Shown here: piece after piece, positions 2,522 through 58,808 of the stretch | How positions within the stretch are numbered: the first letter of the stretch is position 1 | How the letters are laid out: every line of letters begins with the position of its first letter | Assembly: GCA_013361065.1 (NCBI GenBank) | Contig: JABWAK010000002.1 | Coordinates: forward strand, 2,273-66,272 | Source: Bacteroidota bacterium | Lineage (GTDB): Bacteria; Bacteroidota; Ignavibacteria; UBA10030; UBA8401 | Direction: 5' to 3' | Length of the DNA stretch: 64,000 nucleotides | The notes under the pieces: model-generated | What the model was told of the DNA's origin: nothing | The model's database searches: none | The model's input: the letters and a program-made list of their open reading frames with translations, nothing else | Translations under genes and position numbers: made by a program

Positions 2522-3649
2522 ATGAAAATCCTCCTGTTCGGTCCGGCATACCCTCTCCGCGGCGGCATGGCGCACTTCATCGCGCTGCTGTACACGGAGC
2601 TGACGCGCCGCGGCCATCAGGTGAAGATCATCAACTTCACGCGACAGTATCCCAGGATCCTCTTCCCCGGCAAGACGCAGGAGGAGAGCGGCGAAGCCGG
2701 CATCCCGGTGCCGAGCACCGCGCTCATCGACTCCATCAATCCGTTCAACTGGCTCTATCACGGATACCGGCTGCGCCGCGAGAAGGCGGACCTCGTCATC
2801 TCCACGTTCTGGCTGCCGTTCCTCGCCCCCAGTTCCGGCACGCTGCATATGATGCTCCGCAGCAAGCGGACGAAGACACTCACCATCCTGCATAACCTGA
2901 TCCCGCACGAGAAGCGTCCGGGCGACATGCTCTTCACCCGCTGGCTGACGATGTTCACGGACTATTTCATCGCCCAGTCCGCCTCAGTGGAGAAGGACCT
3001 GCAGCAGTTCGTCCCGGGGGCCACATACCGGCGCGTGGCGCTGCCGATGTTCTCGCTGTTCAAAAACCGCATCCCGAAAGAGGAGGCGAAACGCGCGCTG
3101 AACATCACGGATGAACGCGTGATCCTCTTCTTCGGCTACATCCGTCCCTACAAAGGACTCCACGTACTTATCGATGCAATGAAGATCCTCAAGCAGCGGA
3201 TGAAGGTGCGGCTGCTCGTGTGCGGTGAGTTCTACGGGGACGAGGAGAAGTACCGGGCGCATATGACGGAGGCCGGCATCGACGACTGCACGACAGTGAT
3301 CTCGGACTACATCCCCAACGAGAAAGTCCACACATACTTCTCTGCTGCTGATGTGGTGGTGCAGCCGTACATCTCCGCCACACAGAGTGCCATCGCCCAG
3401 ATCGCGTACTTCTTCTCCTCCCCCATCATCGCCACGAATGTCGGTGCGCTGCCGGAGGTGGTGATCGACGGGCGCTCCGGACTGATCGTCCCGCCGAACG
3501 ACCCGCAGGCGATCGCCGATGCGGTCGTCCGCTTCTACGACGAGCGGCTGGAAGCGCCCCTGGCGGCGGGTGCCGCGGAGGAACGGAAGAAATATTCGTG
3601 GGAAGCAATGGCGGAAGCAATAGAAGAGCTCACACGAAATTCAAAATGA
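2522..3649 (+). CDS. GT4-family glycosyltransferase (Glycos_transf_1)
   Basis: C-terminal EX7E-type region ...FFGYIRPYKGLHVLIDA...VQPYISATQSAIAQIAYFFSSPIIATNVGALPEVV...GLIVPPNDP. Confidence 0.85.
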   Translation: MKILLFGPAYPLRGGMAHFIALLYTELTRRGHQVKIINFTRQYPRILFPGKTQEESGEAGIPVPSTALIDSINPFNWLYHGYRLRREKADLVISTFWLPFLAPSSGTLHMMLRSKRTKTLTILHNLIPHEKRPGDMLFTRWLTMFTDYFIAQSASVEKDLQQFVPGATYRRVALPMFSLFKNRIPKEEAKRALNITDERVILFFGYIRPYKGLHVLIDAMKILKQRMKVRLLVCGEFYGDEEKYRAHMTEAGIDDCTTVISDYIPNEKVHTYFSAADVVVQPYISATQSAIAQIAYFFSSPIIATNVGALPEVVIDGRSGLIVPPNDPQAIADAVVRFYDERLEAPLAAGAAEERKKYSWEAMAEAIEELTRNSK

Positions 3650-4607: not shown

Positions 4608-4907
4608 TCACAGTTCAATCGAAAGATGCAGCTGGCCGCCTAAGCCGAACTCCACGATCCTCTGCAGCGTAGAAAGGCGGACCTCCTTGATGTCATTCTC
4701 TATCTTTGAGATGTAGGATTTCGTCGTGCCGACCTTCTCTGCCAGCGCTTCTTGGGTCAGCCCTTTTTCCCTTCTCGCTTCCTGCAGAAGCACACCGATC
4801 TTGAATCGTTCATACCCTTCCTCGAGGAGATCCCGTTTCTTCGTCCCCTTTTTTCCATACCGGCGTACTTTGAACTCTTCCAGTGTGAGCAGATTATGTT
4901 TTCCCAT
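4608..4907 (-). CDS. higA: HTH XRE-family antitoxin (HigA-like)
   Basis: ...GVLLQEARREKGLTQEALAEKVGTTKSYISKIEN... HTH_XRE; overlaps upstream toxin gene by 14 nt; AT-rich. Confidence 0.8.
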   Translation of the reverse strand: MGKHNLLTLEEFKVRRYGKKGTKKRDLLEEGYERFKIGVLLQEARREKGLTQEALAEKVGTTKSYISKIENDIKEVRLSTLQRIVEFGLGGQLHLSIEL

Positions 4908-5244
4908 CTTCGTACTCCTTTTTCAATAATAATGCGCGAGAGATCTCTTTTTTTGGAGTTTTTTGGGATGACTTGTGAAATCCGTGAAGAACGATCACCA
5001 GGTTGCCTTTGCTAAAAAAGCAGAATAACCGGACATGATCGCCTCCCTGCTGTATGCGGATCTCGTACAGACCATCGGTCCCAACGATATGCTTCAAATA
5101 CGATTCGGGAATCCGCGGCAGTTCCTCGATCAGCGTCAGCGTCCAAAGGATCTTCTGCTGCAGCTTTTCTCTTTGTCCGTTAAAAAATTCTAGAAAATAC
5201 TCCTTGTAAAAGAGAACAGCCCTGATGCGCTGTGATTTCTCCAT
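4894..5244 (-). CDS. higB: Type II toxin-antitoxin RelE/ParE-superfamily toxin, Gp49-like (HigB-like)
   Basis: YEIRIQQGGDHVRLFCFFSKGNLVIVLHGFHKSSQKTPKKEISRA matches PF05973 Gp49-like killer proteins; toxin-first order typical of HigBA. Confidence 0.8.
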   Translation of the reverse strand: MEKSQRIRAVLFYKEYFLEFFNGQREKLQQKILWTLTLIEELPRIPESYLKHIVGTDGLYEIRIQQGGDHVRLFCFFSKGNLVIVLHGFHKSSQKTPKKEISRALLLKKEYEDGKT

Positions 5245-8426: not shown

Positions 8427-8462
8427 AAAAAAAATCCCGCTCATCGAGCGGGATTTTTTTTA
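8427..8462. terminator. Bidirectional intrinsic terminator between convergent genes
   Basis: A8-ATCCCGCTC-atcg-GAGCGGGAT-T8 perfect 9-bp stem flanked by A and T runs. Confidence 0.85.
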
Positions 8463-11728: not shown

Positions 11729-13453
11729 ATGAGGATGCGTTGGACGGCGGTCTGTGCCGCAGTGTTGATGGTATTCATTGCCGGATGCTCTTCCGGCGGC
11801 GGGACGGCAGCGGTGACCACCGAAGCACCGGCACCGAAACAGCGGGCGGTCACCGAACAGGACCGGTCGGCGGCGATGCAGCTGTTCATTGACGGCTCAC
11901 TGAAGGAAAGCAAAGGGGAGTTCGCCGAGGCGATCCTGGACTACCAGGATGCACTCCGGTACGACCATGACCCGGCGATCTTCTTCGCCCTGGCGAAATG
12001 TTATCACCAGCTCCGCCGGTATGCAGCGGCATCGGAATATGCGGCGCTGGCGGTACAGCATGAACCGAACAGAGTGGAGTACCGTGAGGTGCTCGCACAG
12101 ACCTATATCAATGCGGGGAAGCTGGACAAGGCCGCGGCGGAATTCCGCATGATCCTGATGCTGGACCCGAAGAATGTCAATGCCGCCTTCACCCTGGCCA
12201 AGATCATGGAACGGGCGCACCCGGCCGAAGCGCTGGAACTCTACAACGGCATCGTGGCGCGGCAGGGACCGTCGTGGGAGGTTCTGCTGCAGATCGCCCA
12301 GCTCAACAGCGCCCTGCAGCGGCACGACAAGGCAGCCGAAGCACTGGAACAGATGCTCCAGCTCGATCCCTCCAACCTTGCACTGAAGCAGAATTTGGCA
12401 GAGACCTATATCCGCCTGAAACGGTTCGAACAGGCGCGGACCATGCTTACGGAGGTACTGGAGCAGAATCCGGACAATGTGATGCTCCGTTCCACCCTGG
12501 CGGATGTCTACCTGCAGCAGAACGACTGGACCTCCGCGCGGAAGGAACTGACGACGATCCTCGCTTCCGATTCGCTCGATCCGGACACCCATCTGCGGAT
12601 CGGCATGGCATACTACGCGCAGACCATCAAGGACACGCTCCTCATCCCGGAGGCGATCGGGGTCTTCCGGCAGTACGAGAAGAACTATCCGACCGACACG
12701 CGTCCCTTCGTCTTCCTCGGCGTGCTGCACCGCGGCATCCGCAAGGATTCCATCGCGGAGACCTACTTCACGCGCGCCACGCAGGCGGCCAACTGGAACG
12801 GCGATGCCTGGTGGCAACTGGGATGGATGTACTTCGACAAACAGGATTACCGTGAGACCATCTCGATCATGACCAAGGCGAAGCAGTACGTGCCGGATGA
12901 CTTCCGCATCTTCCTGCTGCTCGGCATCGCACACAACCGCGCCGGTCAGCAACAGGATTCACGCGTGGCTCTGGAACGTGCAGCGGAACTGAACCCGACC
13001 GATCTGAACGTGCTCTCCTCGCTCGGGCTGACGTACGATGCGCTGAAGATGCATGCGGAGTCCGATTCCACCTACGAACGTGCGCTCCGTATCGATCCGG
13101 ACTATCCGCTCGTGCTGAACAACTATGCATACAGCCTCTCCGAACGTGGCATCCAGCTGTCGCGCGCCGCAACGATGTCCAAAGCATCCCTTGCCGCCGA
13201 CTCCACCAACAGTTCCTATCTGGATACCTACGGATGGATCCTCTATCAACAGGGGAAGTATGATGAAGCGCTCGTCTACATCCGCCGTGCGGTGGAGCTC
13301 GGTGATGCGAGCGCCGTGGTGCTGGAACATCTGGGCGATGTGTACTATCGGGTGGGCGACCGTACCAGAGCGGAGGAGTACTGGAAGAAGGCGCTGGAGA
13401 AGGATGCAAAGAACGCCGCATTGAAGGAGAAGATCGCGCGGGGCTCGCTGTGA
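11729..13453 (+). CDS. TPR-repeat lipoprotein
   Basis: Lipoprotein signal MRMRWTAVCAAVLMVFIAGC, then about 12 TPR-like repeats; the longer ORF start at 11261 lies antisense to the nuclease gene and is rejected. Confidence 0.8.
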   Translation: MRMRWTAVCAAVLMVFIAGCSSGGGTAAVTTEAPAPKQRAVTEQDRSAAMQLFIDGSLKESKGEFAEAILDYQDALRYDHDPAIFFALAKCYHQLRRYAAASEYAALAVQHEPNRVEYREVLAQTYINAGKLDKAAAEFRMILMLDPKNVNAAFTLAKIMERAHPAEALELYNGIVARQGPSWEVLLQIAQLNSALQRHDKAAEALEQMLQLDPSNLALKQNLAETYIRLKRFEQARTMLTEVLEQNPDNVMLRSTLADVYLQQNDWTSARKELTTILASDSLDPDTHLRIGMAYYAQTIKDTLLIPEAIGVFRQYEKNYPTDTRPFVFLGVLHRGIRKDSIAETYFTRATQAANWNGDAWWQLGWMYFDKQDYRETISIMTKAKQYVPDDFRIFLLLGIAHNRAGQQQDSRVALERAAELNPTDLNVLSSLGLTYDALKMHAESDSTYERALRIDPDYPLVLNNYAYSLSERGIQLSRAATMSKASLAADSTNSSYLDTYGWILYQQGKYDEALVYIRRAVELGDASAVVLEHLGDVYYRVGDRTRAEEYWKKALEKDAKNAALKEKIARGSL

Positions 13454-14223
13454 GCCGTCATGTCGTGCTGTCCCTGTTCCTCCTGGCGCTGACCGCTGCC
13501 GGCTGCTCCTCCGTGCCCGAAGCAACCGTTCCTGAAGCGGTCCCGGCCGATGCGGTGCTTGCCCGGCTGGAGACGATCCGTCTTCCGGATGCCTTCTCCG
13601 CCGAAGGCACCATCACCGTCACTGCGCCGACCATGGACCAATCCGCCGGTTTCGAGATGATCGCGCGCGGGGATGATTCAGTGAAGATGAGCATCTACGG
13701 TCCGTTCGGCATCACGGTCGGCACGGCTTTGTTCACACGGGATACCTTCGCCGCTTATAATGCACTGAACAACACCGTCTACCGCGGTTCACCGGAGCGC
13801 CAGCTCCGTTCCCTGCCGTTCATCAACACCATCCCGTTCGAGTTCTTCATGGGCACGCTCCAGGGGGTCCATCTTCCGTCCCGCATCCGGCCGTACGGCG
13901 CCGTACGGCCGGATGCGGACGGCCGCGTCTCCTTCGCAGCGGTCAATGCGGACAGCAGTGTCGATTCGCTCCGGTTCGACGGCTCGTTCGGCAGGATCAT
14001 CTCCTGCACCCGCTGGTCCGCCGGTTCGGTGCAGCAATGGAGCATCCAGTACCGGTACACACGGAACGATGCCGGCGCGGTCATACCGCAGCAGGTCGAG
14101 CTGTTCGTGCCGCTGCGGCAGACGACACTCACCATCGACTATGACGCCGTTGCGGACAATGCCGAGGCGGCGCAGTTCACCCTTCCTGTCCCGGATGATG
14201 CGGAGACCGTCACCGTCCAATGA
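13450..14223 (+). CDS. DUF4292-family lipoprotein
   Basis: Lipobox LTAAGCSS; conserved position between TPR and M23 peptidase genes as in Bacteroidota. Confidence 0.6.
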   Translation: MSRHVVLSLFLLALTAAGCSSVPEATVPEAVPADAVLARLETIRLPDAFSAEGTITVTAPTMDQSAGFEMIARGDDSVKMSIYGPFGITVGTALFTRDTFAAYNALNNTVYRGSPERQLRSLPFINTIPFEFFMGTLQGVHLPSRIRPYGAVRPDADGRVSFAAVNADSSVDSLRFDGSFGRIISCTRWSAGSVQQWSIQYRYTRNDAGAVIPQQVELFVPLRQTTLTIDYDAVADNAEAAQFTLPVPDDAETVTVQ

Positions 14224-24369: not shown

Positions 24370-24439
24370 CCTTGGTGTGGACCAACATTCCGACGCTGTG
24401 CAATGCGTATCTTGCCATGACCACGAATCGGGAGACCGC

Positions 24440-24757
24440 ATGACCACACGAGTTCGCGCCCTGCTGCTGGGGACCGCATTGTTCGGCTTCACTGTGCCGA
24501 ACGGGATGTTCTTCTATTTTCTCTTCGTTGAGTTCACATCGATCACCGATATCCTGACCAATTGGCTGGCGCTCGGCTTCATCATCGACGCATTCATGGC
24601 GACAGGACTGCTGGCGGTCTGGTTCGCTCATCGGCCGCCGGGGAGATATTCCTGGAAGGCGTTCGTGGTGTTGAGTCTTGCGGGGGGATTGGGGTTCTCG
24701 CTGCCGTTCTTCTACTATCTGAACAAGCGGAATGATGATAGTGTCGGCCCGGACTGA
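24440..24757 (+). CDS. Small hypothetical membrane protein
   Basis: MTTRVRALLLGTALFGFTV... three TM helices; GGAGA upstream of ATG 24440. Confidence 0.5.
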   Translation: MTTRVRALLLGTALFGFTVPNGMFFYFLFVEFTSITDILTNWLALGFIIDAFMATGLLAVWFAHRPPGRYSWKAFVVLSLAGGLGFSLPFFYYLNKRNDDSVGPD

Positions 24758-24767
24758 GGTCCGGGCC
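24746..24767. terminator. Hairpin between convergent genes (GGCCCGGAC-tgag-GTCCGGGCC)
   Basis: Perfect 9-bp GC stem; stop codon of 24440-24757 lies in the loop. Confidence 0.5.
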
Positions 24768-27391: not shown

Positions 27392-27522
27392 GGATGAAGA
27401 GATTTGTGAGATCGTATCATTGAATCATTGACCGATCGATTCATTACCGATACGCGTACATCCGATCGTCAATGGACCTGCCGCGCATGAGCGATTTGAG
27501 TGTTGTGGTGTTCATTTCATTA

Positions 27523-27790
27523 CCGGGATGAATCCCGGGGTTTTGGGTTACTGTGTTCCGTTGGTGTGTTCGTGCCTTGGTGGTTCTGTAATTTTGTTCT
27601 GCGTTATTCTGCGGAATCTGCGGGACAGCTCTTTGCATTTCTTGCGCATCGACCTTGGTGAATTATTCTTGCCGGGTGGTTTCTCGATTCCCCGGGATGA
27701 ATCCCGGGGCTTTGGGTTACTGTGTTCCGTTGGTGTGTTCGTGCCTTGGTGGTTCTGTAATTTTGTTCTGCGTTATTCTGCGGAATCTGC
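27523..27790. repeat. Two direct copies of a 104-bp repeat (1 mismatch) at 160-bp period; member of a modular intergenic repeat family (locus A)
   Basis: 27523-27626 and 27683-27786 CCGGGATGAATCCCGGGG(T/C)TTTGGGTTACTGTGTTCCGTTGGTGTGTTCGTGCCTTGGTGGTTCTGTAATTTTGTTCTGCGTTATTCTGCGGAATCTGCGGGA. Confidence 0.9.
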
Positions 27791-27852
27791 GGGATCGACC
27801 TGCTCTGCTTTTGTCATTTCCATTTCACCTCCGGTTTTCGTAGCTTTGTTCC

Positions 27853-31477: not shown

Positions 31478-31824
31478 GGAGGATGCTGATGAATGTGAAG
31501 GGTGTCTGTTCAGGGATTGCTGCATCACCCTACAAATATACGCACTGACGTTGCGTGAGGGTCAAGGGCGAATGGTCAAAAATTTACATTTTTTTCGGTT
31601 AGAATGTGCTCTGCGGGGATGCCGTTACCGCCGGAGATGCAGTAGTTGGCGATAGCGGTATATTTTTATTCTACACTGTTGCTTATCCGTGTCAAAAAGA
31701 TCAATTTACGGTATGAGATTGTGATGGGGGGGGCATTCCGTATAATTCACATTTAAATAAATAATCATTGATAAATTCTATCTAATCTTATGTTGGGCCG
31801 TTTTTCAACCAGAGAGTTGTTACC

Positions 31825-32694
31825 ATGAGATTGAAGTTCTTTTTAGTTCTGGTATTGGCCTTTTTTTGTCTTTCCAGTGAATTTGCACTTTCACAGGACT
31901 CAATTGAGGAGATCCCAATTGCTGGAGTGTGGACGTGTGACCGCCCACCCTACGGCATCGATACACTCATAATTTCCGGTGACAGAATAGTTCTCTCCTT
32001 TGTGGTGGAAGTCGGCGGTCAATCTCGTCATATTTACGGCCGAGTCATTAAAAGTGTGGCAGAGAAGAGCCAACTTGCTTACGAAATCTACAAGGTGATA
32101 GAAGGTAACGTAGTTGTCCCGTCAGCACCCGAACATCGGTTTATGGTATATGAAGTGGCAGAGACTGAGCTTTGGACATATACTGATTCTGGCGCATTTC
32201 CGGATCGCGCCTTCCTCAAAGCAAATGCCTACCGAAGTGCATGGCGAACGAAAGATATTCAGCCGTATTTGGTCCGATTCTATGAAAGCTCAAGTTCGGC
32301 ATGTATAGACTCCGTCCTCTATTCAATCTACGACCATCGAGGAGTAACGCGGGGATCGTCCTACGTGACCATTCCACCCAAGTTTATAGGAGGAGTACAG
32401 GCATATGACGCCTACTTCCAACAGGGATTCAACAGGCAAGAATCTCTTGATGGCATTTTCGGCATTGTGAGTGTCTCTTGTACAATAACCTGCAATGGAT
32501 CGGTATCCAATGTTGAAGTGGCAGAAGGTAGGATGAGCGTCCTCCTTCCTAAGACACTTGAATTACTCATGAAGTTAGTATCGGGAATGCCGAATTGGAT
32601 CCCCGCACTTAGTGACTACCGGAAAGTGCCCTGCAGAATAGAAATCCCTTTTGTTATCTCAGATGGCAGGCTGCGTGCGGGCCGTCCGCGATGA
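31825..32694 (+). CDS. Secreted hypothetical protein with C-terminal TonB_C-like domain; AT-rich island
   Basis: Signal peptide MRLKFFLVLVLAFFCLSSEFALSQ; C-terminus GIFGIVSVSCTITCNGSVSNVEVAEG...IPALSDYRKVPCRIEIPFVI resembles TonB C-terminal fold. Confidence 0.5.
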   Translation: MRLKFFLVLVLAFFCLSSEFALSQDSIEEIPIAGVWTCDRPPYGIDTLIISGDRIVLSFVVEVGGQSRHIYGRVIKSVAEKSQLAYEIYKVIEGNVVVPSAPEHRFMVYEVAETELWTYTDSGAFPDRAFLKANAYRSAWRTKDIQPYLVRFYESSSSACIDSVLYSIYDHRGVTRGSSYVTIPPKFIGGVQAYDAYFQQGFNRQESLDGIFGIVSVSCTITCNGSVSNVEVAEGRMSVLLPKTLELLMKLVSGMPNWIPALSDYRKVPCRIEIPFVISDGRLRAGRPR

Positions 32695-32907
32695 AACGGC
32701 CTAACAAGCGGCTCATGACTGACCCCGCAACCGCATTCCTGCCTGTCGGCAGGCATGCGCTCTGAAACTCAAGTGTTGAGTCGTCAGCATACAACTTAGG
32801 ATACGAAAGCTCATTTTATATACATGAGCACTGACCTCTGACCCTGAATGGTTACGGGATAGCTTATCCGCCATCCGATACATGATTGCTATTCTTAATA
32901 ATCCCCT

Positions 32908-33471
32908 ATGAAATATCAATCAACGCTAATCCTGCTGTTTATAGTGCTCCTTTCGCTTTTACATAATGGTTGTTATTCTCCTCAAACGAAGAGATCGGTA
33001 TTTATTTATAAAGGAATGGACTACACTGCATTTTGTGCAGATTCAGTCCGTGTATATTTATCAAATTGGTTTGATTCTACAATTCTTCATTCGGGGACCG
33101 ATAGTTGTAACGGATATTCAGGTGTTTCCTTCACTGATCCTGAACTTACTAATTTGTTAACCAGCGGTGAATTAACAGGAGAGATGTTTTGTAAAGCTAT
33201 TGAGAAACAAACGGGTGAGTACCCACGGCCTCAATTTGATTCATATTTAGGTGATTCCTATCATGATTCGCTAAACTCAGATTTAAATTGGCATGGTGGA
33301 TTGATTGTCGTGGTTCAATGGTTGAATAGATGTACCATTAACGGAGATCGACAAACCACGTTGTGTGTATCAATGAATAGGTTTGAGGTTGGAGGAGATT
33401 GTATGCTATTTTCTTTCACTATTAAGGATGATAAAATTAGAGACTTCAAGTATAAAGGATATATTCTTTAA
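32908..33471 (+). CDS. Hypothetical lipoprotein; AT-rich island
   Basis: Lipobox LLHNGC; no recognisable domain. Confidence 0.45.
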   Translation: MKYQSTLILLFIVLLSLLHNGCYSPQTKRSVFIYKGMDYTAFCADSVRVYLSNWFDSTILHSGTDSCNGYSGVSFTDPELTNLLTSGELTGEMFCKAIEKQTGEYPRPQFDSYLGDSYHDSLNSDLNWHGGLIVVVQWLNRCTINGDRQTTLCVSMNRFEVGGDCMLFSFTIKDDKIRDFKYKGYIL

Positions 33472-33701
33472 TTATTCTATTCTTTGCAATCGCTCTGCCA
33501 TATTAACAATGAACCCCGCATAGAAGCATTGCGGAACAGACAGTTGCAACTGTGGCCTCGAAAAAGTCCCAAGTGTCATGAAATCTAAACTCAACATACG
33601 ATTCGTCAGTATTCAGCATATTAAAAATAAAGCGCGTGGTCGCAGTAAAACGTCTTCACGTAGTTTAGTCGCCATCCGTTAGGCGGTTTCCGAGTATATC
33701 A

Positions 33702-34529
33702 ATGATAGACGAAAGAGTGATTAATATATATACTGACGGTTCGTCAAGGTCAACTCCTCGGCGCGGCGGTGTTGGAATAAGGTATATTTATGTAAACGAA
33801 AGTGGTGCGGAAATTTCGACCGATCTTAATTTACCTGGTTACCCTAATGCCACCAGTCAAGAAATGGAGTTACAAGCTTGCGTATTGGCATTGAATCATT
33901 TAGACGACTATCCTGACTTAGCAAGATTCACAAAAGTAGTGATTTACAGCGACTCCAAATACGTTGTTGACAATTTCCACAATGCTCTGTTTCGTTGGTC
34001 AAAGAATGGATGGACTCGAAAAGAAGGAGCTCCCGTGTTGAATGCCACTATTTGGAAGGAGCTATTAAAAGCTATTCGCAAATGCCGACGTAGGGTAGAA
34101 TTCACTAAAGTAAAGGGTCACTCGACAGACCCTCACAATAAAGCAGTGGACAAACTCGCTAAGATATCCTCTTCAATACCATTTAATCAGGCACTTTCAC
34201 CAACAATTGTTCGACGCAAGATGTCTGATCGAAAAACTAAAATTGGCAGTGTGCTTGCAATCGGCCAAAGAATTACAATTCGAATTGTCCAAAGTCAATA
34301 CTTGCGAGAACAAAAGTTGTATCGATATCGATATGAAGTGATGTCTAAATCTAGTCCATTCTACAAGAATGTGGATTTTGCTGTCACTGAACATATCTTG
34401 CGAGAAGCGCATACATATTCTGTTCGAATAAATTCTGAACAAGCTAATCCAAGGATTGTCAAAGTATTCAGAGAGACGATCCCAAACGCGGTTAACAAGG
34501 CAAAGAGAAATGATAATAAAACTGCTTAA
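33702..34529 (+). CDS. RNase HI domain fused to an uncharacterised ~125-aa C-terminal domain; AT-rich island
   Basis: INIYTDGSS...SQEMELQA...VVIYSDSKYVV...VKGHSTDPHNKAVDKLAK gives all five RNase HI catalytic positions (D,E,D,H,D); C-terminal 125 aa unassigned. Confidence 0.7.
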   Translation: MIDERVINIYTDGSSRSTPRRGGVGIRYIYVNESGAEISTDLNLPGYPNATSQEMELQACVLALNHLDDYPDLARFTKVVIYSDSKYVVDNFHNALFRWSKNGWTRKEGAPVLNATIWKELLKAIRKCRRRVEFTKVKGHSTDPHNKAVDKLAKISSSIPFNQALSPTIVRRKMSDRKTKIGSVLAIGQRITIRIVQSQYLREQKLYRYRYEVMSKSSPFYKNVDFAVTEHILREAHTYSVRINSEQANPRIVKVFRETIPNAVNKAKRNDNKTA

Positions 34530-34844
34530 CCATATCATAATAGAACCCCGAATAGAACCATTGCGGGGCAAACCCCGCCCAACAACGGCAGGACGGGCTC
34601 GTCAAAAAAAATTAATCCCCGTTCGCATCATGCAGCACAATGATGCGTTCAATATCCCTTGAAGCTGCACAATTTCCATCCTGCCGCCCGGCCAACGTTT
34701 GTCCTCATGACGGTATCTGACTGCGGCGGCGATCCCCGGGGCGGCCGGTACCGCCGTACAGCGGAAATCGCGAAAATTCCGTATATTATGGTAGTTTCTT
34801 TCCGTCCGGTACCGGACAGTATCGTCCAATAACTTAGGGTTCCC

Positions 34845-40678: not shown

Positions 40679-40794
40679 GACCGTTGACGATGAGCGTGTT
40701 GAGCATGATGCCTTCCCACGCTAAGCCTAAGGATAGCATTATTCTATACGGAAAGACCCTGAAATCGCGCTGACCGGAAGAATATCGTGGCGCT

Positions 40795-40900
40795 CTTCAG
40801 GGTGACGTGCAGTGAGGTGACGCTCACCGTTTCTACGGGATACCATCCTTTGTTACAGTTCTTTCTTCTCTGTGTTCTCTGGGTCTCTGTGGTGATCGTT
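40795..40900. repeat. Intergenic repeat, locus B of the modular family
   Basis: GGTGACGCTCACC hairpin, TACGGGATACCATCC module, TTCTTCTCTGTGTTCTCTGGGTCTCTGTGGTGA module shared with 42628-42990. Confidence 0.7.
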
Positions 40901-40901
40901 C

Positions 40902-41672
40902 TTACACCAATCCCAGACTGACCGCATACCGTACCGCTTCTGCGGTGTTCTCGGTATTGGTCTTTTCCAGGATGTTGCGGCGATGATTGTTCACGGTGTT
41001 CACGCTCAGGAAGAGTTCGTCCGCCACCTGCTTGCTTCCCATTCCTTTCGACAGCATTCCGAGGATCTCGATCTCCCTTTTGGAAAGCACCGTCCGTCCG
41101 GACTCCTCATCGGAAAAGACACATTGTTTCCCCGTCCGCATGTTCACAACGCTCCGCTGCGGCGGCATCTCCTCTCCCCGCTCCGGGACGATATCGTTGA
41201 GCATCAGCATCAGCCAGATATTCCCCCGCGCATCCAGCTCCAGCGGAAGCAGCTGCTGGATGAACCGCGCATACGTTCCTTTCGCTGACCGGAGCCGGAA
41301 ATCGTAGATGATCTTATGCTCCTTCTTCTCCGCCGCCGGAAGACCGATCAGATATCCGTTCCCCCGTTGTAATGTTTCCAGAACGACAGGGATATCCTGC
41401 GGATGCATGATGCTGAAGAGTGCGCGGGGTCCCTGCTGCATGACCGTCTCCAGTTCCAGTCCGATCACCGGAAGGAACTTTGACTGGAGGAATGCATACC
41501 GCTGACGGTAGAGGTCCATCACCGCCACGGAACTGTTCTCCACCAGCGCCAGCTGACGGAGGAAGCCGAGATGCTTCTCCAGGTGGGAATAATCGATATC
41601 CCGCTCATCGAACTGCTGCAGGGAAAGGATGGAAAGATAGCGGGAAAAGAGGCGTTCGAACTCGGGGGTCAT
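40902..41672 (-). CDS. LuxR-family transcriptional regulator with N-terminal PAS-like sensor domain
   Basis: C-terminal EIEILGMLSKGMGSKQVADELFLSVNTVNNHRRNILEK (LuxR HTH). Confidence 0.8.
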   Translation of the reverse strand: MTPEFERLFSRYLSILSLQQFDERDIDYSHLEKHLGFLRQLALVENSSVAVMDLYRQRYAFLQSKFLPVIGLELETVMQQGPRALFSIMHPQDIPVVLETLQRGNGYLIGLPAAEKKEHKIIYDFRLRSAKGTYARFIQQLLPLELDARGNIWLMLMLNDIVPERGEEMPPQRSVVNMRTGKQCVFSDEESGRTVLSKREIEILGMLSKGMGSKQVADELFLSVNTVNNHRRNILEKTNTENTAEAVRYAVSLGLV

Positions 41673-41769
41673 GGCAAAATAGCGAATAATGACTATCAAC
41701 TACGCCGTTCAAGATACGTAAATTTGATACAAAAACATCCGGCTCCCCCTGAACGATGAAAGGAACACC

Positions 41770-42603
41770 ATGAAACCGACCACCCTTCTCCCGATCATCG
41801 CCGCAGCGTTGCTGGCTGCCGGCTGCACCACGGTCCAGACCCGTTACGAACAGCTCACCGCCGACGCATTGCAGCACCAAACGAATGCACCGGAACATAT
41901 CCTGACCGAACACGATCTGGCGGGATTGCCTCTCCCGGTGCAGAACTATCTTCGCTACACCGGCGCTGTCGGCCGGCCGGTACCGCAGAATATGTCAATG
42001 ACATTCGATGCGCAGATGGTCCGCAAGCGCGGGGACGAGCCGATGGAAGCAACATCGCAGCAGGTGAACATCCTCACCGACCGTACGCGCATCTTCACGA
42101 TGAAGGCGGGAATGTTCCTCGTCCCGTTCCAGGCGCTGCACGTCTACCGCGACACACAGGCCACGTTCATCGTCCGTGTGGCGAACATGTTCAACGTGGT
42201 CGACATCGCCGGTGATACGCTGACCACGGCGGAAACGGTGACGATGCTGAACGATATCTGCGTCTTCGCACCGGCATATCTCACCGCGCCGTGCTTCGCC
42301 TGGAAGGAGATCGATGCCCGTTCCGCCGGGGTGACCTTCACGAACGGACCCTACCGCGTCCGTGCAACGCTGCTGTTCAATGAGGAAGGTGCGCTGGTCG
42401 ATTTCATCTCGGACGACCGCTATGCGCTGGAAGGGGACGGAACGATGCGGAATGTGCGGTGGACGACCCCGCTCTCCGACTATCGTGAGTTCGACGGAAG
42501 GAAGATCGCCACGTATGGAGAGGCGGTGTATCACTATCCGGACGGACCGTTCGTCTACGGAACGTTCAGACTTACCGGCATCCGGTACAATGTCCGGCAG
42601 TAA
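41770..42603 (+). CDS. Hypothetical lipoprotein (DUF6544-like)
   Basis: Lipobox LLAAGC; conserved C-terminal ...PLSDYREFDG.K....EAVY.....PFVYGTF.L..I.YN. Confidence 0.5.
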   Translation: MKPTTLLPIIAAALLAAGCTTVQTRYEQLTADALQHQTNAPEHILTEHDLAGLPLPVQNYLRYTGAVGRPVPQNMSMTFDAQMVRKRGDEPMEATSQQVNILTDRTRIFTMKAGMFLVPFQALHVYRDTQATFIVRVANMFNVVDIAGDTLTTAETVTMLNDICVFAPAYLTAPCFAWKEIDARSAGVTFTNGPYRVRATLLFNEEGALVDFISDDRYALEGDGTMRNVRWTTPLSDYREFDGRKIATYGEAVYHYPDGPFVYGTFRLTGIRYNVRQ

Positions 42604-42627
42604 TGCCGCGCCGGTTGTCTTCCCTTG

Positions 42628-42990
42628 GTGAGCGTCACCAGTGACAATTGAGTTTTACGGGACGGGATACCATCCCGTCCTACAACTGGGTCGAAGCACC
42701 GCTTCGAACTACAATTTCTTCTGTGGCTCTGTGTTTTTGTGGTAACGTATATATTTGATTGCCGGCGTAAACGCCGTCCTACCGGACTTGGGTCGCAGTT
42801 TGATGCCAAGTCTCCTCCTCTTCTCTGTGCTCTCCGTGTCCTCTGTGGTGAAGTTTTCTGGACGGGATAACATCCCGTCCTACCTCTGGGTCGAAGCGGC
42901 GCATCGACGCGCATTTCTTCTTTGCGTGCTTTGCGTTCCTTGCGGTGAAGATTTTGTATGCTCGGCAACATTGCGTATCTTTCTCCTGAA
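42628..42990. repeat. Two tandem ~150-bp hairpin-rich repeat units, locus C of the modular family
   Basis: Two copies of GGACGGGATA(C/A)CATCCCGTCCTAC..CTGGGTCGAAGC.. plus GCCGGCGTAAACGCC hairpin and TCTGTG..TCTGTGGTGA module. Confidence 0.85.
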
Positions 42991-43028
42991 CACATGCCGT
43001 GACACGGCAAACACCATGGAGTGAGCGC

Positions 43029-46193: not shown

Positions 46194-46620
46194 TAATTAT
46201 CAAGATTGAAAGATTATCAAGATTACAAGATTCAAAAAAACGGAAACACATAGAAACAGAGGAAGCATAGAAGAACAGTAAAGCAATTGAAAGATTATCA
46301 AGATTACAAGATTATCAAGATGGCAAGATTCAAATAGCGGAAACACATCGGAACATAGGAAACATAGAAGAGCGGAAATGCGATTGAAAGATTATCAAAA
46401 TTGCAAGATTCAAAAACGGAAACACATAGGAACATAGGAAACATAGAAGAACGGTAAAGCAATTGAAAGATTATCAAGATTACAAGATTCAAAAAACGGA
46501 AACACATAGAAACATAGGAAACATAGAAGAGCGGAAAAGCAATTGAAAGATTATCAAGATTACAAGATTCAAAAAACGGAAACACATAGAAACATAGGAA
46601 ACATAGAAGAGCGGAAAAGC
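46194..46620. repeat. AT-rich tandem repeat: 5 copies of a ~80-bp unit directly upstream of the MDR dehydrogenase gene
   Basis: Unit GCAATTGAAAGATTATCAAGATTACAAGATTCAAAAAACGGAAACACATAGAAACATAGGAAACATAGAAGAGCGGAAAA; copies 4 and 5 identical; internal CAAGATT and GAAACATA sub-repeats. Confidence 0.95.
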
Positions 46621-47623: not shown

Positions 47624-47741
47624 CGATGCGGCGGGGACCTTCCCGGACTTCGGACCGGGCATGGTGACGGAAAATTATTGAACTTCGTCCTGCGGCGCGG
47701 TGTTATCCAGAACATCCATTGAATCTCAGCCGCGAACGACC

Positions 47742-55443: not shown

Positions 55444-55485
55444 AAATGTGTAGTGAAAGATGTCGTGCGAGAAGAACAATACAGC

Positions 55486-55660
55486 CATTCCAATATTATC
55501 AGAATTATCAAGATTGCATGATTGAGTCGTGGAGTAAAGTTGGGGGAAAAGCGATTGGAAGTTTATCAGAATTAGCTGAAGAATAAAGTGAAAACACAAA
55601 GAAATATGTCTGATTACTGATTACTGATAGCTGATCACTGACAGCTGAAAGCTTTTTCCG
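55486..55660. repeat. Degenerate single copy of the 46194-46620 repeat unit followed by a CTGA(T/C)(T/A)A simple repeat, in a convergent-gene spacer
   Basis: ATTATCAAGATTGCATGATTGAG...GCGATTGGAAGTTTATCAGAATTA...GAAAACACAAAGAAATA versus the unit GCGATTGAAAGATTATCAAAATTGCAAGATTC...GGAAACACATAG; then CTGATTACTGATTACTGATAGCTGATCACTGACAGCTGA. Confidence 0.6.
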
Positions 55661-58243: not shown

Positions 58244-58299
58244 TCGATCCTTCTTCTCTTCTGTTCGTATACTTCCTGGTGAGCGTTGTATAAAACCTT

Positions 58300-58780
58300 G
58301 TCATGTGATGTTGTAACAATATGCCGGCGTAAACGCCGGCTTACCCAACCTGTAGCCGGGATGGTTCATCCCGGTCAAATAAAAACTTGCGAAGTTTGTT
58401 CTGCATACCTCGTTCAACCTTTCGCAAGGTTTTCTTCGGGCGGTGTTGTTATTCCTTCTGCGTTATTCAGCGGATTCAGCGGGATATTCTTTCGTTCTTT
58501 GCTTCGCCGGAAAAGGACCGACTCTGGAGAGTCGGTCAACGTACATTCAGCCATCCCCGATCGGCTTTCGATGTTGTAACAATGTGCCGGCGTGAACGCC
58601 GGTCTGCCGAATACTGATCGTTGCTGGTGTTTCCATTTCTTTCTGCGTTGTTCTGCGGATTCAGCGGGATATTCTTTCGTTATTTGCTTCACTGAAACAG
58701 GACCGACTCTGGAGAGTCGGTCAACATATGTTCACCCATCCCTTATCGGCTTTCGATGTTGTAACAATGTGCCGATCGTG
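58300..58780. repeat. Tandem ~185-bp hairpin-rich repeat (2 full copies + partial), locus D of the modular family, filling the 565-bp spacer upstream of the MATE gene
   Basis: Repeated TTCTGCGTT.TTC.GCGGATTCAGCGGGATATTCTTTCGTT...GGACCGACTCTGGAGAGTCGGTC...TCGGCTTTCGATGTTGTAACAATGTGCCGGCGTGAACGCCGG; plus CCGGGATGGTTCATCCCGG and GCCGGCGTAAACGCCGGC hairpins. Confidence 0.9.
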
Positions 58781-58808
58781 GTCCACAAGTCGCAGACCCT
58801 TCTTACAA

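Follow-up and report, generated by a model that had tools for sequence, protein, structure and literature searches.

Here we analyse clusters of short repeats in a 64,000-nucleotide stretch of DNA from an uncultured Bacteroidota bacterium (NCBI GenBank assembly GCA_013361065.1, contig JABWAK010000002.1, positions 2,273 to 66,272 of the forward strand), hereafter referred to as the window. Four of its intergenic regions, loci A to D, hold arrays that, like a further array (E), are probably mosaic clusters of dispersed short DNA repeats of the repetitive extragenic palindromic (REP) or bacterial interspersed mosaic element (BIME) type, growing by tandem duplication and spreading as DNA. They would thus belong with the selfish or structural DNA already familiar from bacteria and would not represent a novel type of gene or RNA. 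The modules that build them occur at many separate loci in at least two species, and both single hairpins and whole units are gained or lost at orthologous sites. Moreover, the units of locus A (99 % identical) reflect a very recent tandem duplication or homogenisation. The original prediction, made from the letters of the window, had reported hairpin-rich repeats at these four loci, and the sequences are confirmed.

Repeats were located with repeat finders and by comparing the intergenic DNA with the whole window in blastn searches. One hairpin module, M4, served as the query (GGACGGGATANCATCCCGTC) in a scan of 185,579 species-representative genomes. The comparisons below draw on "Bacteroidota bacterium GS21" (GS21), a second metagenome-assembled genome (MAG) carrying the modules of the window, and on L001, a Logan contig from SRR28523965 whose aminotransferase shares 90 % amino-acid identity with that of the window. 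L002 and L003 are more distant relatives, at 80 % amino-acid identity. The class-V aminotransferase adjoining locus A in the window shares 100 % identity with NUN68166.1, a protein of a "Bacteroidetes bacterium" MAG.

Repeat arrays at four intergenic loci

The arrays occupy the following regions:

27392-27852: locus A, between a DUF1801 gene and a class-V aminotransferase gene, both on the + strand
40679-40901: locus B, between convergent genes for a major facilitator superfamily (MFS) transporter (+) and a LuxR-type regulator (-)
42604-43028: locus C, between a DUF6544 gene and a DsbA-like gene, both on the + strand
58244-58808: locus D, between an AHSA1-like gene and a MATE pump gene, both on the - strand

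The near-identity of the units predicted for locus A is borne out, as positions 27523-27625 recur at 27692-27794 with 102/103 nucleotides identical (period 169, E 2e-51 within the window). Locus D repeats 58452-58589 at 58637-58774 (138 nt, 90 %, period 185), and locus C repeats 42660-42707 at 42860-42907 (87.5 %, period 200; 83-87.5 % over 48-59 nt). A tandem period of 160-190 bp had been proposed; this describes A and D, but C falls slightly outside the range.

Five of the six modules said to be shared between loci hold. Module 2 is common to A and D (26/29, E 1e-5), module 3 to C and D (22/24) and module 5 to B and C (~88 % over 33 nt). Module 4 has two copies in locus C and a 14-nt partial copy in locus B, and both copies of module 6 are in locus D, where the hairpin is better drawn with a 9-bp stem and a 4-nt loop than with the 10-bp stem first given. 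Module 1, however, lumps together two hairpins and is not common to A and D: that of A is CCCCGGGA-tgaa-TCCCGGGG, whereas that of D is GTAG-CCGGGATG-gtt-CATCCCGG, with a different stem, a different loop and the opposite tag orientation. Further members of the family had been missed, namely the GGTCGAAGC hairpin (hS), a TTGGTG/TTCGTG tri-repeat, the TGCGCATCGACCTTGG box of locus A, two additional arrays (E and F) and a GGCCCGGAC hairpin at 24746.

The repeats are confined to the spaces between genes. We found no convincing module copy within any gene of the window, and none of these modules in its other short intergenic regions. Most of the long intergenic gaps examined are accounted for by arrays, and the long spacers owe their length to them. 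Perfect hairpins with a stem of at least 8 bp number 6 in arrays A-D (1,674 bp), compared with 0.055 in shuffles of the same sequence.

Hairpins with a GTAG tag

The hairpin modules, together with the boxes and palindromes that adjoin them, are:

27523-27540, + strand: imperfect M1 copy, locus A; CCGGGATGAATCCCGGGG then TTTTGGG
27690-27709, + strand: perfect M1 copy, locus A; CCCCGGGA tgaa TCCCGGGG, then CTTTGGG; terminator-like; also in GS21 contig L026
40806-40829, + strand: degenerate GGTGAC-type palindrome, locus B; GTGCAGTGAGGTGACGCTCACCG; the GS21 ortholog has a perfect 14-bp stem
40833-40849, + strand: decayed M4 REP, locus B; CTACGGGATACCATCCT
42660-42683, + strand: M4 REP, locus C; GGACGGGAT acc ATCCCGTCC, then TAC; second copy at 42860-42883
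42689-42712, + strand: hS REP, locus C; GGTCGAAGC acc GCTTCGAAC, then TAC; one stem mismatch; decayed copy at 42889-42909
42760-42783, + strand: M3 REP, locus C; TGCCGGCGTAAACGCCGTCCTACC; CTAC tag, one stem mismatch
58307-58345, + strand: M9 box (GATGTTGTAACAATATGCC) overlapping an M3 REP (GCCGGCG taaa CGCCGGC, then TTAC), locus D
58570-58608: further M9 and M3, locus D; M9 alone at 58755-58773
58352-58374, + strand: GTAG-tagged REP in opposite orientation (the 58352 hairpin), locus D; GTAG CCGGGATG gtt CATCCCGG, 23 nt
58384-58440, + strand: long inverted repeat, locus D; AAACTTGCGAA...TTCGCAAGGTTT; on reading, resembles AACCTTGCGAAGGTT...AACCTTCGCAAGGTT in GS21 contigs L004 and L026
58515-58540, + strand: M6 hairpin, locus D; G GACCGACTC tgga GAGTCGGTC AAC; GTTG-type tag on the - strand; second copy at 58700-58725
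24746-24767, + strand: solitary hP hairpin; GGCCCGGAC tgag GTCCGGGCC; copies in GS21 contigs L013 and L025

REPs of the GTAG super-family carry an unpaired GTAG tag next to a stem of mostly 6-9 bp with a loop of 2-3 nt (PMC3733652). The REP of Stenotrophomonas maltophilia is 23 nt long and consists of GTAG and an 8-bp perfect palindrome with a 3-nt loop; its REP-associated tyrosine transposase (RAYT) needs GTAG for cleavage (PMC8266576). Such repeats are palindromes of 20-40 bp with a stem of 6-13 bp and a short loop; the hairpins described here have this structure, and M4, hS and the 58352 hairpin carry GTAG at one end. These last three share the 23-nt design of the GTAG-tagged REPs (Di Nocera et al. 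2013, PMC3733652), specifically that of the group-3 type of S. maltophilia (PMC8266576).

Read on the - strand, M4 is GTAG, GACGGGAT, 3 nt and ATCCCGTC (23 nt in all), and hS, which begins GTAG-GTCGAAGC, follows M4's design. M4, hS and M6 are perfect 9-bp palindromes, the stem of M3 is 7 bp and that of the 58352 hairpin 8 bp, with loops of 3-4 nt throughout. The outermost pair of M4 and hS is formed by the last G of the GTAG tag, which leaves an 8-bp REP stem proper. M4 is followed by TAC in 13/16 copies of the lineage, in 9/18 other genome hits and in 21/31 metagenome hits, where chance would give 1/64; hS is followed by TAC in 4/6 copies. M3, which comes close to this design, has CTAC or TTAC as its tag. 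The 58352 hairpin has its GTAG on the 5′ side and forms a tail-to-tail pair with the preceding M3.

Not every hairpin of the arrays belongs to this class. M1 and hP have no tag and therefore are not GTAG-REP members; both look like ordinary GC-rich terminator-type hairpins. The loop of the hP hairpin contains the TGA stop of the open reading frame (ORF) at 24377-24757, and a decayed copy of hP lies at 47642, just past a dehydrogenase gene.

Stem variation differs between family variants and orthologous copies. The M6 family exists in the variants GACCGACTC, GATCGACTC and GACCGAATC, each with a matching 3′ arm and thus perfectly compensated, and compensated variants are present in GS21. Orthologous copies of M1, M4 and hS, on the other hand, contain uncompensated stem mutations. 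Therefore, the hairpin appears to matter for the spreading of the repeat and not for a job at each locus.

Strand, folding and the possibility of functional RNA

Arrays A-D are all on the + strand, whichever way the adjoining genes run: A and C share the orientation of their genes, the genes on either side of B converge, and D is antisense to both of its neighbours. Array E (below) and the GS21 arrays on contigs L026 and L012 are likewise antisense to the neighbouring genes. GC skew, as a means of relating array strand to the direction of replication, was flat and uninformative. A comparison of G:T with A:C mismatches as a guide to the functional strand had too few imperfect copies, and too short a seed in M3, to be informative.

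It had been suggested that the repeats could be an array of small structured RNAs in 5′ leader positions. More broadly, the arrays might be transcribed as tandem structured RNAs or as cis-acting leader or 3′ untranslated region (UTR) elements, whose hairpins and U-rich tri-repeats would bind a protein or set mRNA 3′ ends. This would suit the terminator-like appearance of M1 and hP (GC-rich stems followed by T-rich tails), the sense orientation of A, B and C downstream of a + strand gene, and a module order and orientation that is fixed across loci as in a modular RNA. Moreover, REPs elsewhere are often transcribed and act in 3′ UTRs (PMC3733652). The unit of locus A folds better than shuffles (z = -3.6), but those of C and D are not significantly structured (z = -1.7 and -1.4, respectively), leaving little fold beyond the hairpins. 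Locus B, between convergent genes, has no downstream gene to regulate, and both neighbours of D, of E and of several GS21 arrays lie on the strand opposite to the array. Stems are lost from orthologous copies with no compensating change, and close relatives differ by the gain or loss of whole modules. A search of the arrays against Rfam 15 gave no match at gathering scores, and at E <= 5 none within any array. We therefore regard functional RNA as an unlikely explanation of the arrays.

Dispersal and turnover in related genomes

The M4 query found 24 loci in the genome scan, 8 of which are contigs of GS21. That genome holds 10 exact copies of M4 on these 8 contigs, which also carry M1, M3, M6, hS, hP, both tri-repeats and box X, in similar order and almost always co-oriented. 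The original prediction would have given way to local duplication junk had there been neither further copies nor transcription; because GS21 carries the modules on at least 8 contigs, the repeats form a dispersed family within the lineage and are not local junk. Copies in the window and in GS21 are dispersed and extragenic, with 2-3 per hairpin type in the 64-kb window and the 10 exact M4 in the fragmented GS21 assembly. This last count is probably too low since MAGs break at repeats. Another hairpin family of GS21, CCACGAAGT-ggcc-ACTTCGTGG with AAATG after it, has three copies within 1 kb (L021:6120-7058) and none in the window.

Comparison of orthologous sites shows how quickly the arrays change. 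L001 keeps locus A between its two flanking genes and has a clean 27-nt M4 insertion, GCGGACGGGATATCATCCCGTCTTACA, between ...TCTGTAAT and TTGTTCTGCG. The same locus in L001 is without the second M1 and tA and shows a 22-nt indel relative to the window. Upstream of the aminotransferase gene, L002 and L003 are free of modules. A GS21 contig (L015) is syntenic with window positions 38.4-43.6 kb at 77-81 % nucleotide identity. Its ortholog of locus B has an extra hS, tB and M4, and its ortholog of locus C has a single M4-hS-tB unit as against about three in the window. Where the window has positions 40902-42603, L002 (18472-20479) has the MFS gene followed directly by the DsbA gene across a 91-bp spacer that is free of modules. 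Because the MFS gene directly precedes DsbA in this 80 %-identical relative, arrays B and C flank a two-gene block (LuxR-type, - strand; DUF6544, + strand) that is absent from it. GS21 has both the LuxR-type/DUF6544 block and the two arrays.

The 27-nt insertion also bears on whether the units are miniature inverted-repeat transposable elements (MITEs), that is, non-autonomous derivatives of DDE-type insertion sequences that have inserted repeatedly, as the original prediction allowed. The units are indeed short, non-coding, dispersed and intergenic, and the long GGTGAC...GTCACC inverted repeats of GS21 resemble small foldback elements. However, the insertion, which is the only clean one observed, is a single hairpin and has no terminal inverted repeat or target-site duplication. 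An inverted-repeat scan of the four loci gave only the hairpins themselves, with no terminal inverted repeats or target-site duplications bounding either the units or the arrays. Moreover, the modules combine freely instead of forming one fixed transposing element. No similarity was found in 72,556 plasmid records (PLSDB), a distant blastn with loci C and D returning only one 39-nt chance-level match. A MITE origin is thus very improbable.

Given that the window comes from a MAG, and that repeats break assemblies, as several GS21 hits at contig ends indicate, we also considered whether the arrays could be collapsed or chimerised metagenome repeats. The same modules, however, are present at orthologous loci in independent assemblies (the NCBI MAG, the GS21 MAG and Logan SRR28523965) at species-level divergence, and the tandem copies are not identical. 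We consider an assembly artefact the least probable of the explanations.

M4 occurs across phyla, sometimes as doublets that resemble REPINs. In Ignavibacteriales-like contigs it forms the right arm of such doublets, with the tags outside (TGTAGGTCGGATTGCCAATCCGACC-N9-GGACGGGATAGCATCCCGTCCTACA). The arms read TGTAGGTCGGATT..AATCCGACC-N9-GGACGGGAT..ATCCCGTCCTACA. REPIN-like M4 pairs are seen in other lineages, in L016, L019, L027, L030, L037 and others. A scan of metagenomes (JGI set) with the M6 hairpin as query gave 0 hits, and the lineage of the window seems to be absent from that set. Ignavibacteriales and Bacteroidota MAGs also have 83-88-bp tandem arrays of their own (L005:5400-5700, L007:5250-5550 and L019/L043), made of M4 and a second hairpin, GTCGTCCCGATG...GATCGGGAC or GTAGGTCGGGTAGTTTACCCGACC.

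Tri-repeats, boxes and module order

Between the hairpins lie modules that are not palindromic, namely T-rich tri-repeats (TTYGTG x3; TCTGCG x3..GGTGA) and the TGCGCATCGACCTTGG box:

27561-27590, + strand: tri-repeat tA', locus A; TTGGTG TG TTCGTG CC TTGGTG GTT; second copy at 27730-27759
27597-27625, + strand: tri-repeat tB2, locus A; TTCTGCG TTA TTCTGCG GAA TCTGCG GGA; second copy at 27766-27794; identical copy in L001
27629-27658, + strand: box X, locus A; CTCTTTGCATTTCTTGCGCATCGACCTTGG; variants in GS21 contigs L021, L025 and L026
40865-40895, + strand: tri-repeat tB3, locus B; CTTCTCTGTG T TCTCTGGG TC TCTGTG GTGA
42717-42745, + strand: tri-repeat C1, locus C; TTCTTCTGTG GC TCTGTG TTT TTGTG GTAA
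42820-42851, + strand: tri-repeat C2 / tB3, locus C; CTTCTCTGTG C TCTCCGTG TCC TCTGTG GTGA
42918-42948, + strand: tri-repeat C3, locus C; TTCTTTGCG TGC TTTGCG TTCC TTGCG GTGA; ortholog in GS21 contig L015
58456-58484, + strand: tri-repeat tB2 variant, locus D; TTCTGCG TTA TTCAGCG GAT TCAGCG GGA; second copy at 58641-58669
46196-46620, + strand: array E, tandem run of five ~80-97 bp units that are 84-93 % alike; flanked by a small ORF and the gene of a zinc-dependent dehydrogenase
55470-55653: array F, flanked by convergent genes; an E1-like ATTATCAGAATTATCAAGATTGCATGATT precedes a tandem run of six heptamers (CTGATTA/CTGATAG/CTGATCA/CTGACAG/CTGAAAG)

The tri-repeat pattern (T[CT]N[GA][CT]G x3, period 7-11) has 9 matches on the + strand (8 of them in A, C and D) and 1 on the - strand, compared with 1.3 in shuffles for both strands together. 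A distance of 6 nt separates the end of the tB3 of locus B from the stop codon of the convergent LuxR-type gene. GS21 has TTTCGTGATTTTGTGCCTTTGTGGTT in the slot that tA' occupies in locus A. Each unit of array E consists of AAGATTATCAAGATTACAAGATTC and GGAAACACATAGAAACATAGGAAACATAGAAGA and has no hairpins. Its second module looks like a T-rich tri-repeat (TCTATG x3) on the - strand, of the same class as tA and tB in opposite orientation, and a similar module adjoins tA, M4 and M6 in GS21 contig L011.

Across the window, L001 and GS21 the modules tend to follow one order: M1 or hP, (GGTGAC palindromes), M6, tA, M4, hS, tB, box X and M1 again, where tA is TTYGTG x3 ... GGTT and tB is TCTGCG or TCTGTG x3 ... 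GGTGA. They are nearly always co-oriented, the exceptions being the 58352 hairpin, L004:2166 and L012:2162. The sub-repeats of tA-type modules are more alike within than between modules (permutation p ~0.02, a small sample of 10 units). On reading both sequences, the 30-nt box X CTCTTTGCATTTCTTGCGCATCGACCTTGG is identical in the window and at a non-orthologous site of GS21 (L004).

Such features raise the question of whether a DNA-binding protein (a nucleoid-associated protein, integration host factor (IHF)/HU or a regulator) binds to arrays of sites formed by the tri-repeats and box X, so that the arrays would be DNA of regulatory or architectural function which REPs have merely colonised. 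Three direct sub-repeats with a period of 7-11 nt and a conserved GGTGA or GGTT end, at many loci in two species, would be in keeping with this, as would the homogeneity of the tA sub-repeats and the identity of box X at non-orthologous loci. There is a parallel in Escherichia coli, where BIME-1 has an IHF site between its REPs. The period, however, ranges between 7 and 11 nt with no helical phasing, and the core differs between modules (GCG, GTG or ATG), a poor fit to a single protein. Moreover, close relatives differ at one and the same locus in the modules they have gained or lost, and the arrays take no consistent position with respect to promoters or gene starts. Binding-site arrays are therefore a somewhat poorer candidate than functional RNA and, like it, doubtful.

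Outside the lineage, a lower-GC contig labelled as a Chitinophaga pinensis MAG (L020) has M4 at its very end and a single TTTTTGCGTCTTTGTGTCTTTGCG tri-repeat (3095-3125) ~3 kb away, just past a gene. The tri-repeat motif may thus not be confined to the lineage of the window.

Comparison with known repeat families

The option of a REP- or BIME-like family, raised in the original prediction, is the one best matched by the GTAG/CTAC tag, the 23-nt design, the recurrence in GS21 and the mosaic of REPs and non-palindromic motifs. As in the described GTAG REPs, the repeats are extragenic and multi-copy, have compensated variants, occur as several REP types per genome and form tandem clusters together with flanking DNA. 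Mosaic REP clusters in which flanking DNA is reiterated in tandem are known from REP families (PMC3733652). Their description as new is justified in part. These sequences were not found in the searchable literature, where the hairpins gave only unrelated primer matches, and a 2013 survey lists GTAG repeats for Proteobacteria, Cyanobacteria, Chloroflexi and the Planctomycetes-Verrucomicrobia-Chlamydiae group, with only CGTC repeats in Bacteroidetes and Chlorobi (PMC3733652); the kind of element, however, is well known. Group 4 RAYTs are reported to be common in Chlorobia and Caldilineae (PMC5581495), which is compatible with where M4-like hairpins are found, as a correlation only.

Several points weigh against a REP identity. 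Copy number per hairpin type is modest and seems lower than in described GTAG REPs, with 10 exact M4 in GS21 compared with hundreds for classical REPs. The hairpins are almost all head-to-tail, unlike the alternating orientation that defines BIMEs and REPINs; this arrangement is rare in described GTAG families, where head-to-head and tail-to-tail dimers dominate (PMC3733652). M1 and hP lack the GTAG tag and M6 carries GTTG, a change that abolished cleavage in the S. maltophilia system (PMC8266576). We found no RAYT/Y1 transposase in the window and 57 other loci (~0.5 Mb) by tblastn with E. coli TnpA_REP and by a scan for HUH/YxxNP motifs, a search of low power given the distant query and the restriction to genome fragments, and one that speaks neither for nor against the link. 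The query was verified as identical to PDB 4ER8 chain A and itself scores no Pfam Y1_Tnp match. Lastly, a purely selfish REP does not explain the conserved module order or the T-rich tri-repeats.

The co-oriented unit (M1/hP, M6, tA, M4, hS, tB, box X) could instead be a new composite element or a modular non-coding RNA with the tri-repeats as its functional core, an idea to which we attach no more than a small likelihood. The tri-repeats could then be docking sites for a lineage-specific protein of the single-strand-binding or RNA recognition motif type, or strand-specific landing pads for REP insertion, and the GTAG hairpins optional inserts at fixed slots. Such a unit would account for the head-to-tail orientation, the fixed order and the homogeneity of sub-repeats within modules, since a plain REP model leaves these open.

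Likeness to other systems is partial. In both the arrays and E. coli BIMEs, a small set of conserved non-palindromic motifs stands between REP hairpins in a preferred order, the position is intergenic and the number of units varies. However, the REPs of the arrays are in direct orientation whereas those of BIMEs alternate, so that the arrays are not BIMEs as defined, and the extra-REP motifs are T-rich tri-repeats and not the S, L, l or r motifs. The BOX elements of Streptococcus pneumoniae are modular (boxA, a variable number of boxB, and boxC), intergenic and fold as one long stem-loop. The arrays are likewise modular, intergenic and of variable composition, with no sequence similarity to BOX. 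Cyanobacterial short tandemly repeated repetitive (STRR) sequences are short tandem 7-nt repeats in intergenic DNA. The run of six CTGATTA-type heptamers in array F resembles these, the tri-repeats only loosely so; STRR arrays are longer, and the tri-repeats have exactly 2-3 sub-repeats and a fixed terminal GGTGA or GGTT. The intergenic mosaic elements of Neisseria (NIMEs) consist of RS units with dRS3 at their borders, an inverted repeat of 20 bp that a phage integrase uses. The sequences in the window are unrelated, and nothing like the bounding 20-bp inverted repeat was seen there. In both cases, though, long intergenic regions are made of several unrelated repeat families in tandem or mosaic form that differ between close relatives, CGTC-1 REPs being interleaved with other families in Neisseria (PMC3733652). 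REPINs (Bertels and Rainey 2011, PMC3116915) find a counterpart in the inverted M4 doublets of Ignavibacteriales-like contigs and in the tail-to-tail pair of M3 and the 58352 hairpin. In contrast, hairpins in the lineage of the window are mostly single, co-oriented and inside larger units, and so are not REPINs as defined.

Returning to the REP reading, we propose that the GTAG hairpins would owe their spread, in the form of single-stranded DNA, to a HUH tyrosine transposase of the RAYT/TnpA_REP type, encoded elsewhere in the genome, and that the arrays would grow and shrink through unequal recombination or replication slippage. The non-palindromic tA, tB, box X and box M9 may act like the extra-REP motifs of E. 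coli BIMEs. Effects on the host would be incidental, candidates being termination or 3′-end protection by M1, hP and M4 and recombination hot spots at the borders of gene blocks.

Other candidates and other features of the window

Further kinds of element were considered and rejected. The repeats are not a clustered regularly interspaced short palindromic repeat (CRISPR) array: what repeats is the entire tandem unit (169-200 bp), including the sequence between its hairpins, and there is no regular repeat-spacer pattern. Integron attC sites were dismissed as there are no cassette-like ORFs and no associated genes, and an IS200/TnpB omega-RNA on anatomy and, again, for lack of associated genes. 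Bacteroidetes-type promoter motifs (TTTG ... TAnnTTTG) were sought by eye with promoter-terminator cassettes in mind; the TAATTTTG of locus A is not conserved in GS21 units.

The remaining observations concern other parts of the window. Positions 31500-34600 have a GC content of 0.49 compared with 0.58 overall, and include ORFs resembling lipoprotein genes as well as a gene with an RNase H domain (33702-34529). Identity to L001 is 95 % in the RNase H segment (L001:7126-8026) but only 82-88 % in the flanking syntenic DNA, which suggests that the segment was recently exchanged or is mobile. In GS21 (L013) the syntenic block ends at about window position 34757, followed by a REP array (hP, GGTGAC palindromes and M4) and a different gene. 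Therefore, the low-GC island is apparently absent at the GS21 site. A perfect palindrome with a 17-bp stem, CCGCATCCGGCCGTACG-gcgc-CGTACGGCCGGATGCGG, lies at 13881-13918, apparently inside the ORF at 13450-14223, and is unrelated to the repeat family. At 8427-8461, where two genes converge, a symmetric A8...T8 hairpin (16-bp stem) is a textbook bidirectional terminator and the source of all weak Rfam leader and RsmY hits. Overlapping small genes with Gp49-like (DUF891) and HTH_3 domains on the - strand at 4608-5244 are toxin-antitoxin-like.

Implications

If the arrays are REP clusters, then GTAG-type REPs extend into uncultured Bacteroidota and Ignavibacteriales-like lineages. Our understanding of REPs as such would be unchanged, but the architecture would be unusual, in that REPs of several kinds run uniformly head-to-tail and keep a fixed order together with T-rich tri-repeats. 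Annotators would be cautioned against calling ORFs or small RNAs within the arrays. The clean 27-nt insertion at an orthologous site would be a natural example of the mobility of a single REP. Moreover, the arrays would explain both the oversized intergenic regions seen here and the fragmentation of MAGs from this lineage, and would mark sites of rapid structural change, such as B and C on either side of a gene block that a relative lacks.

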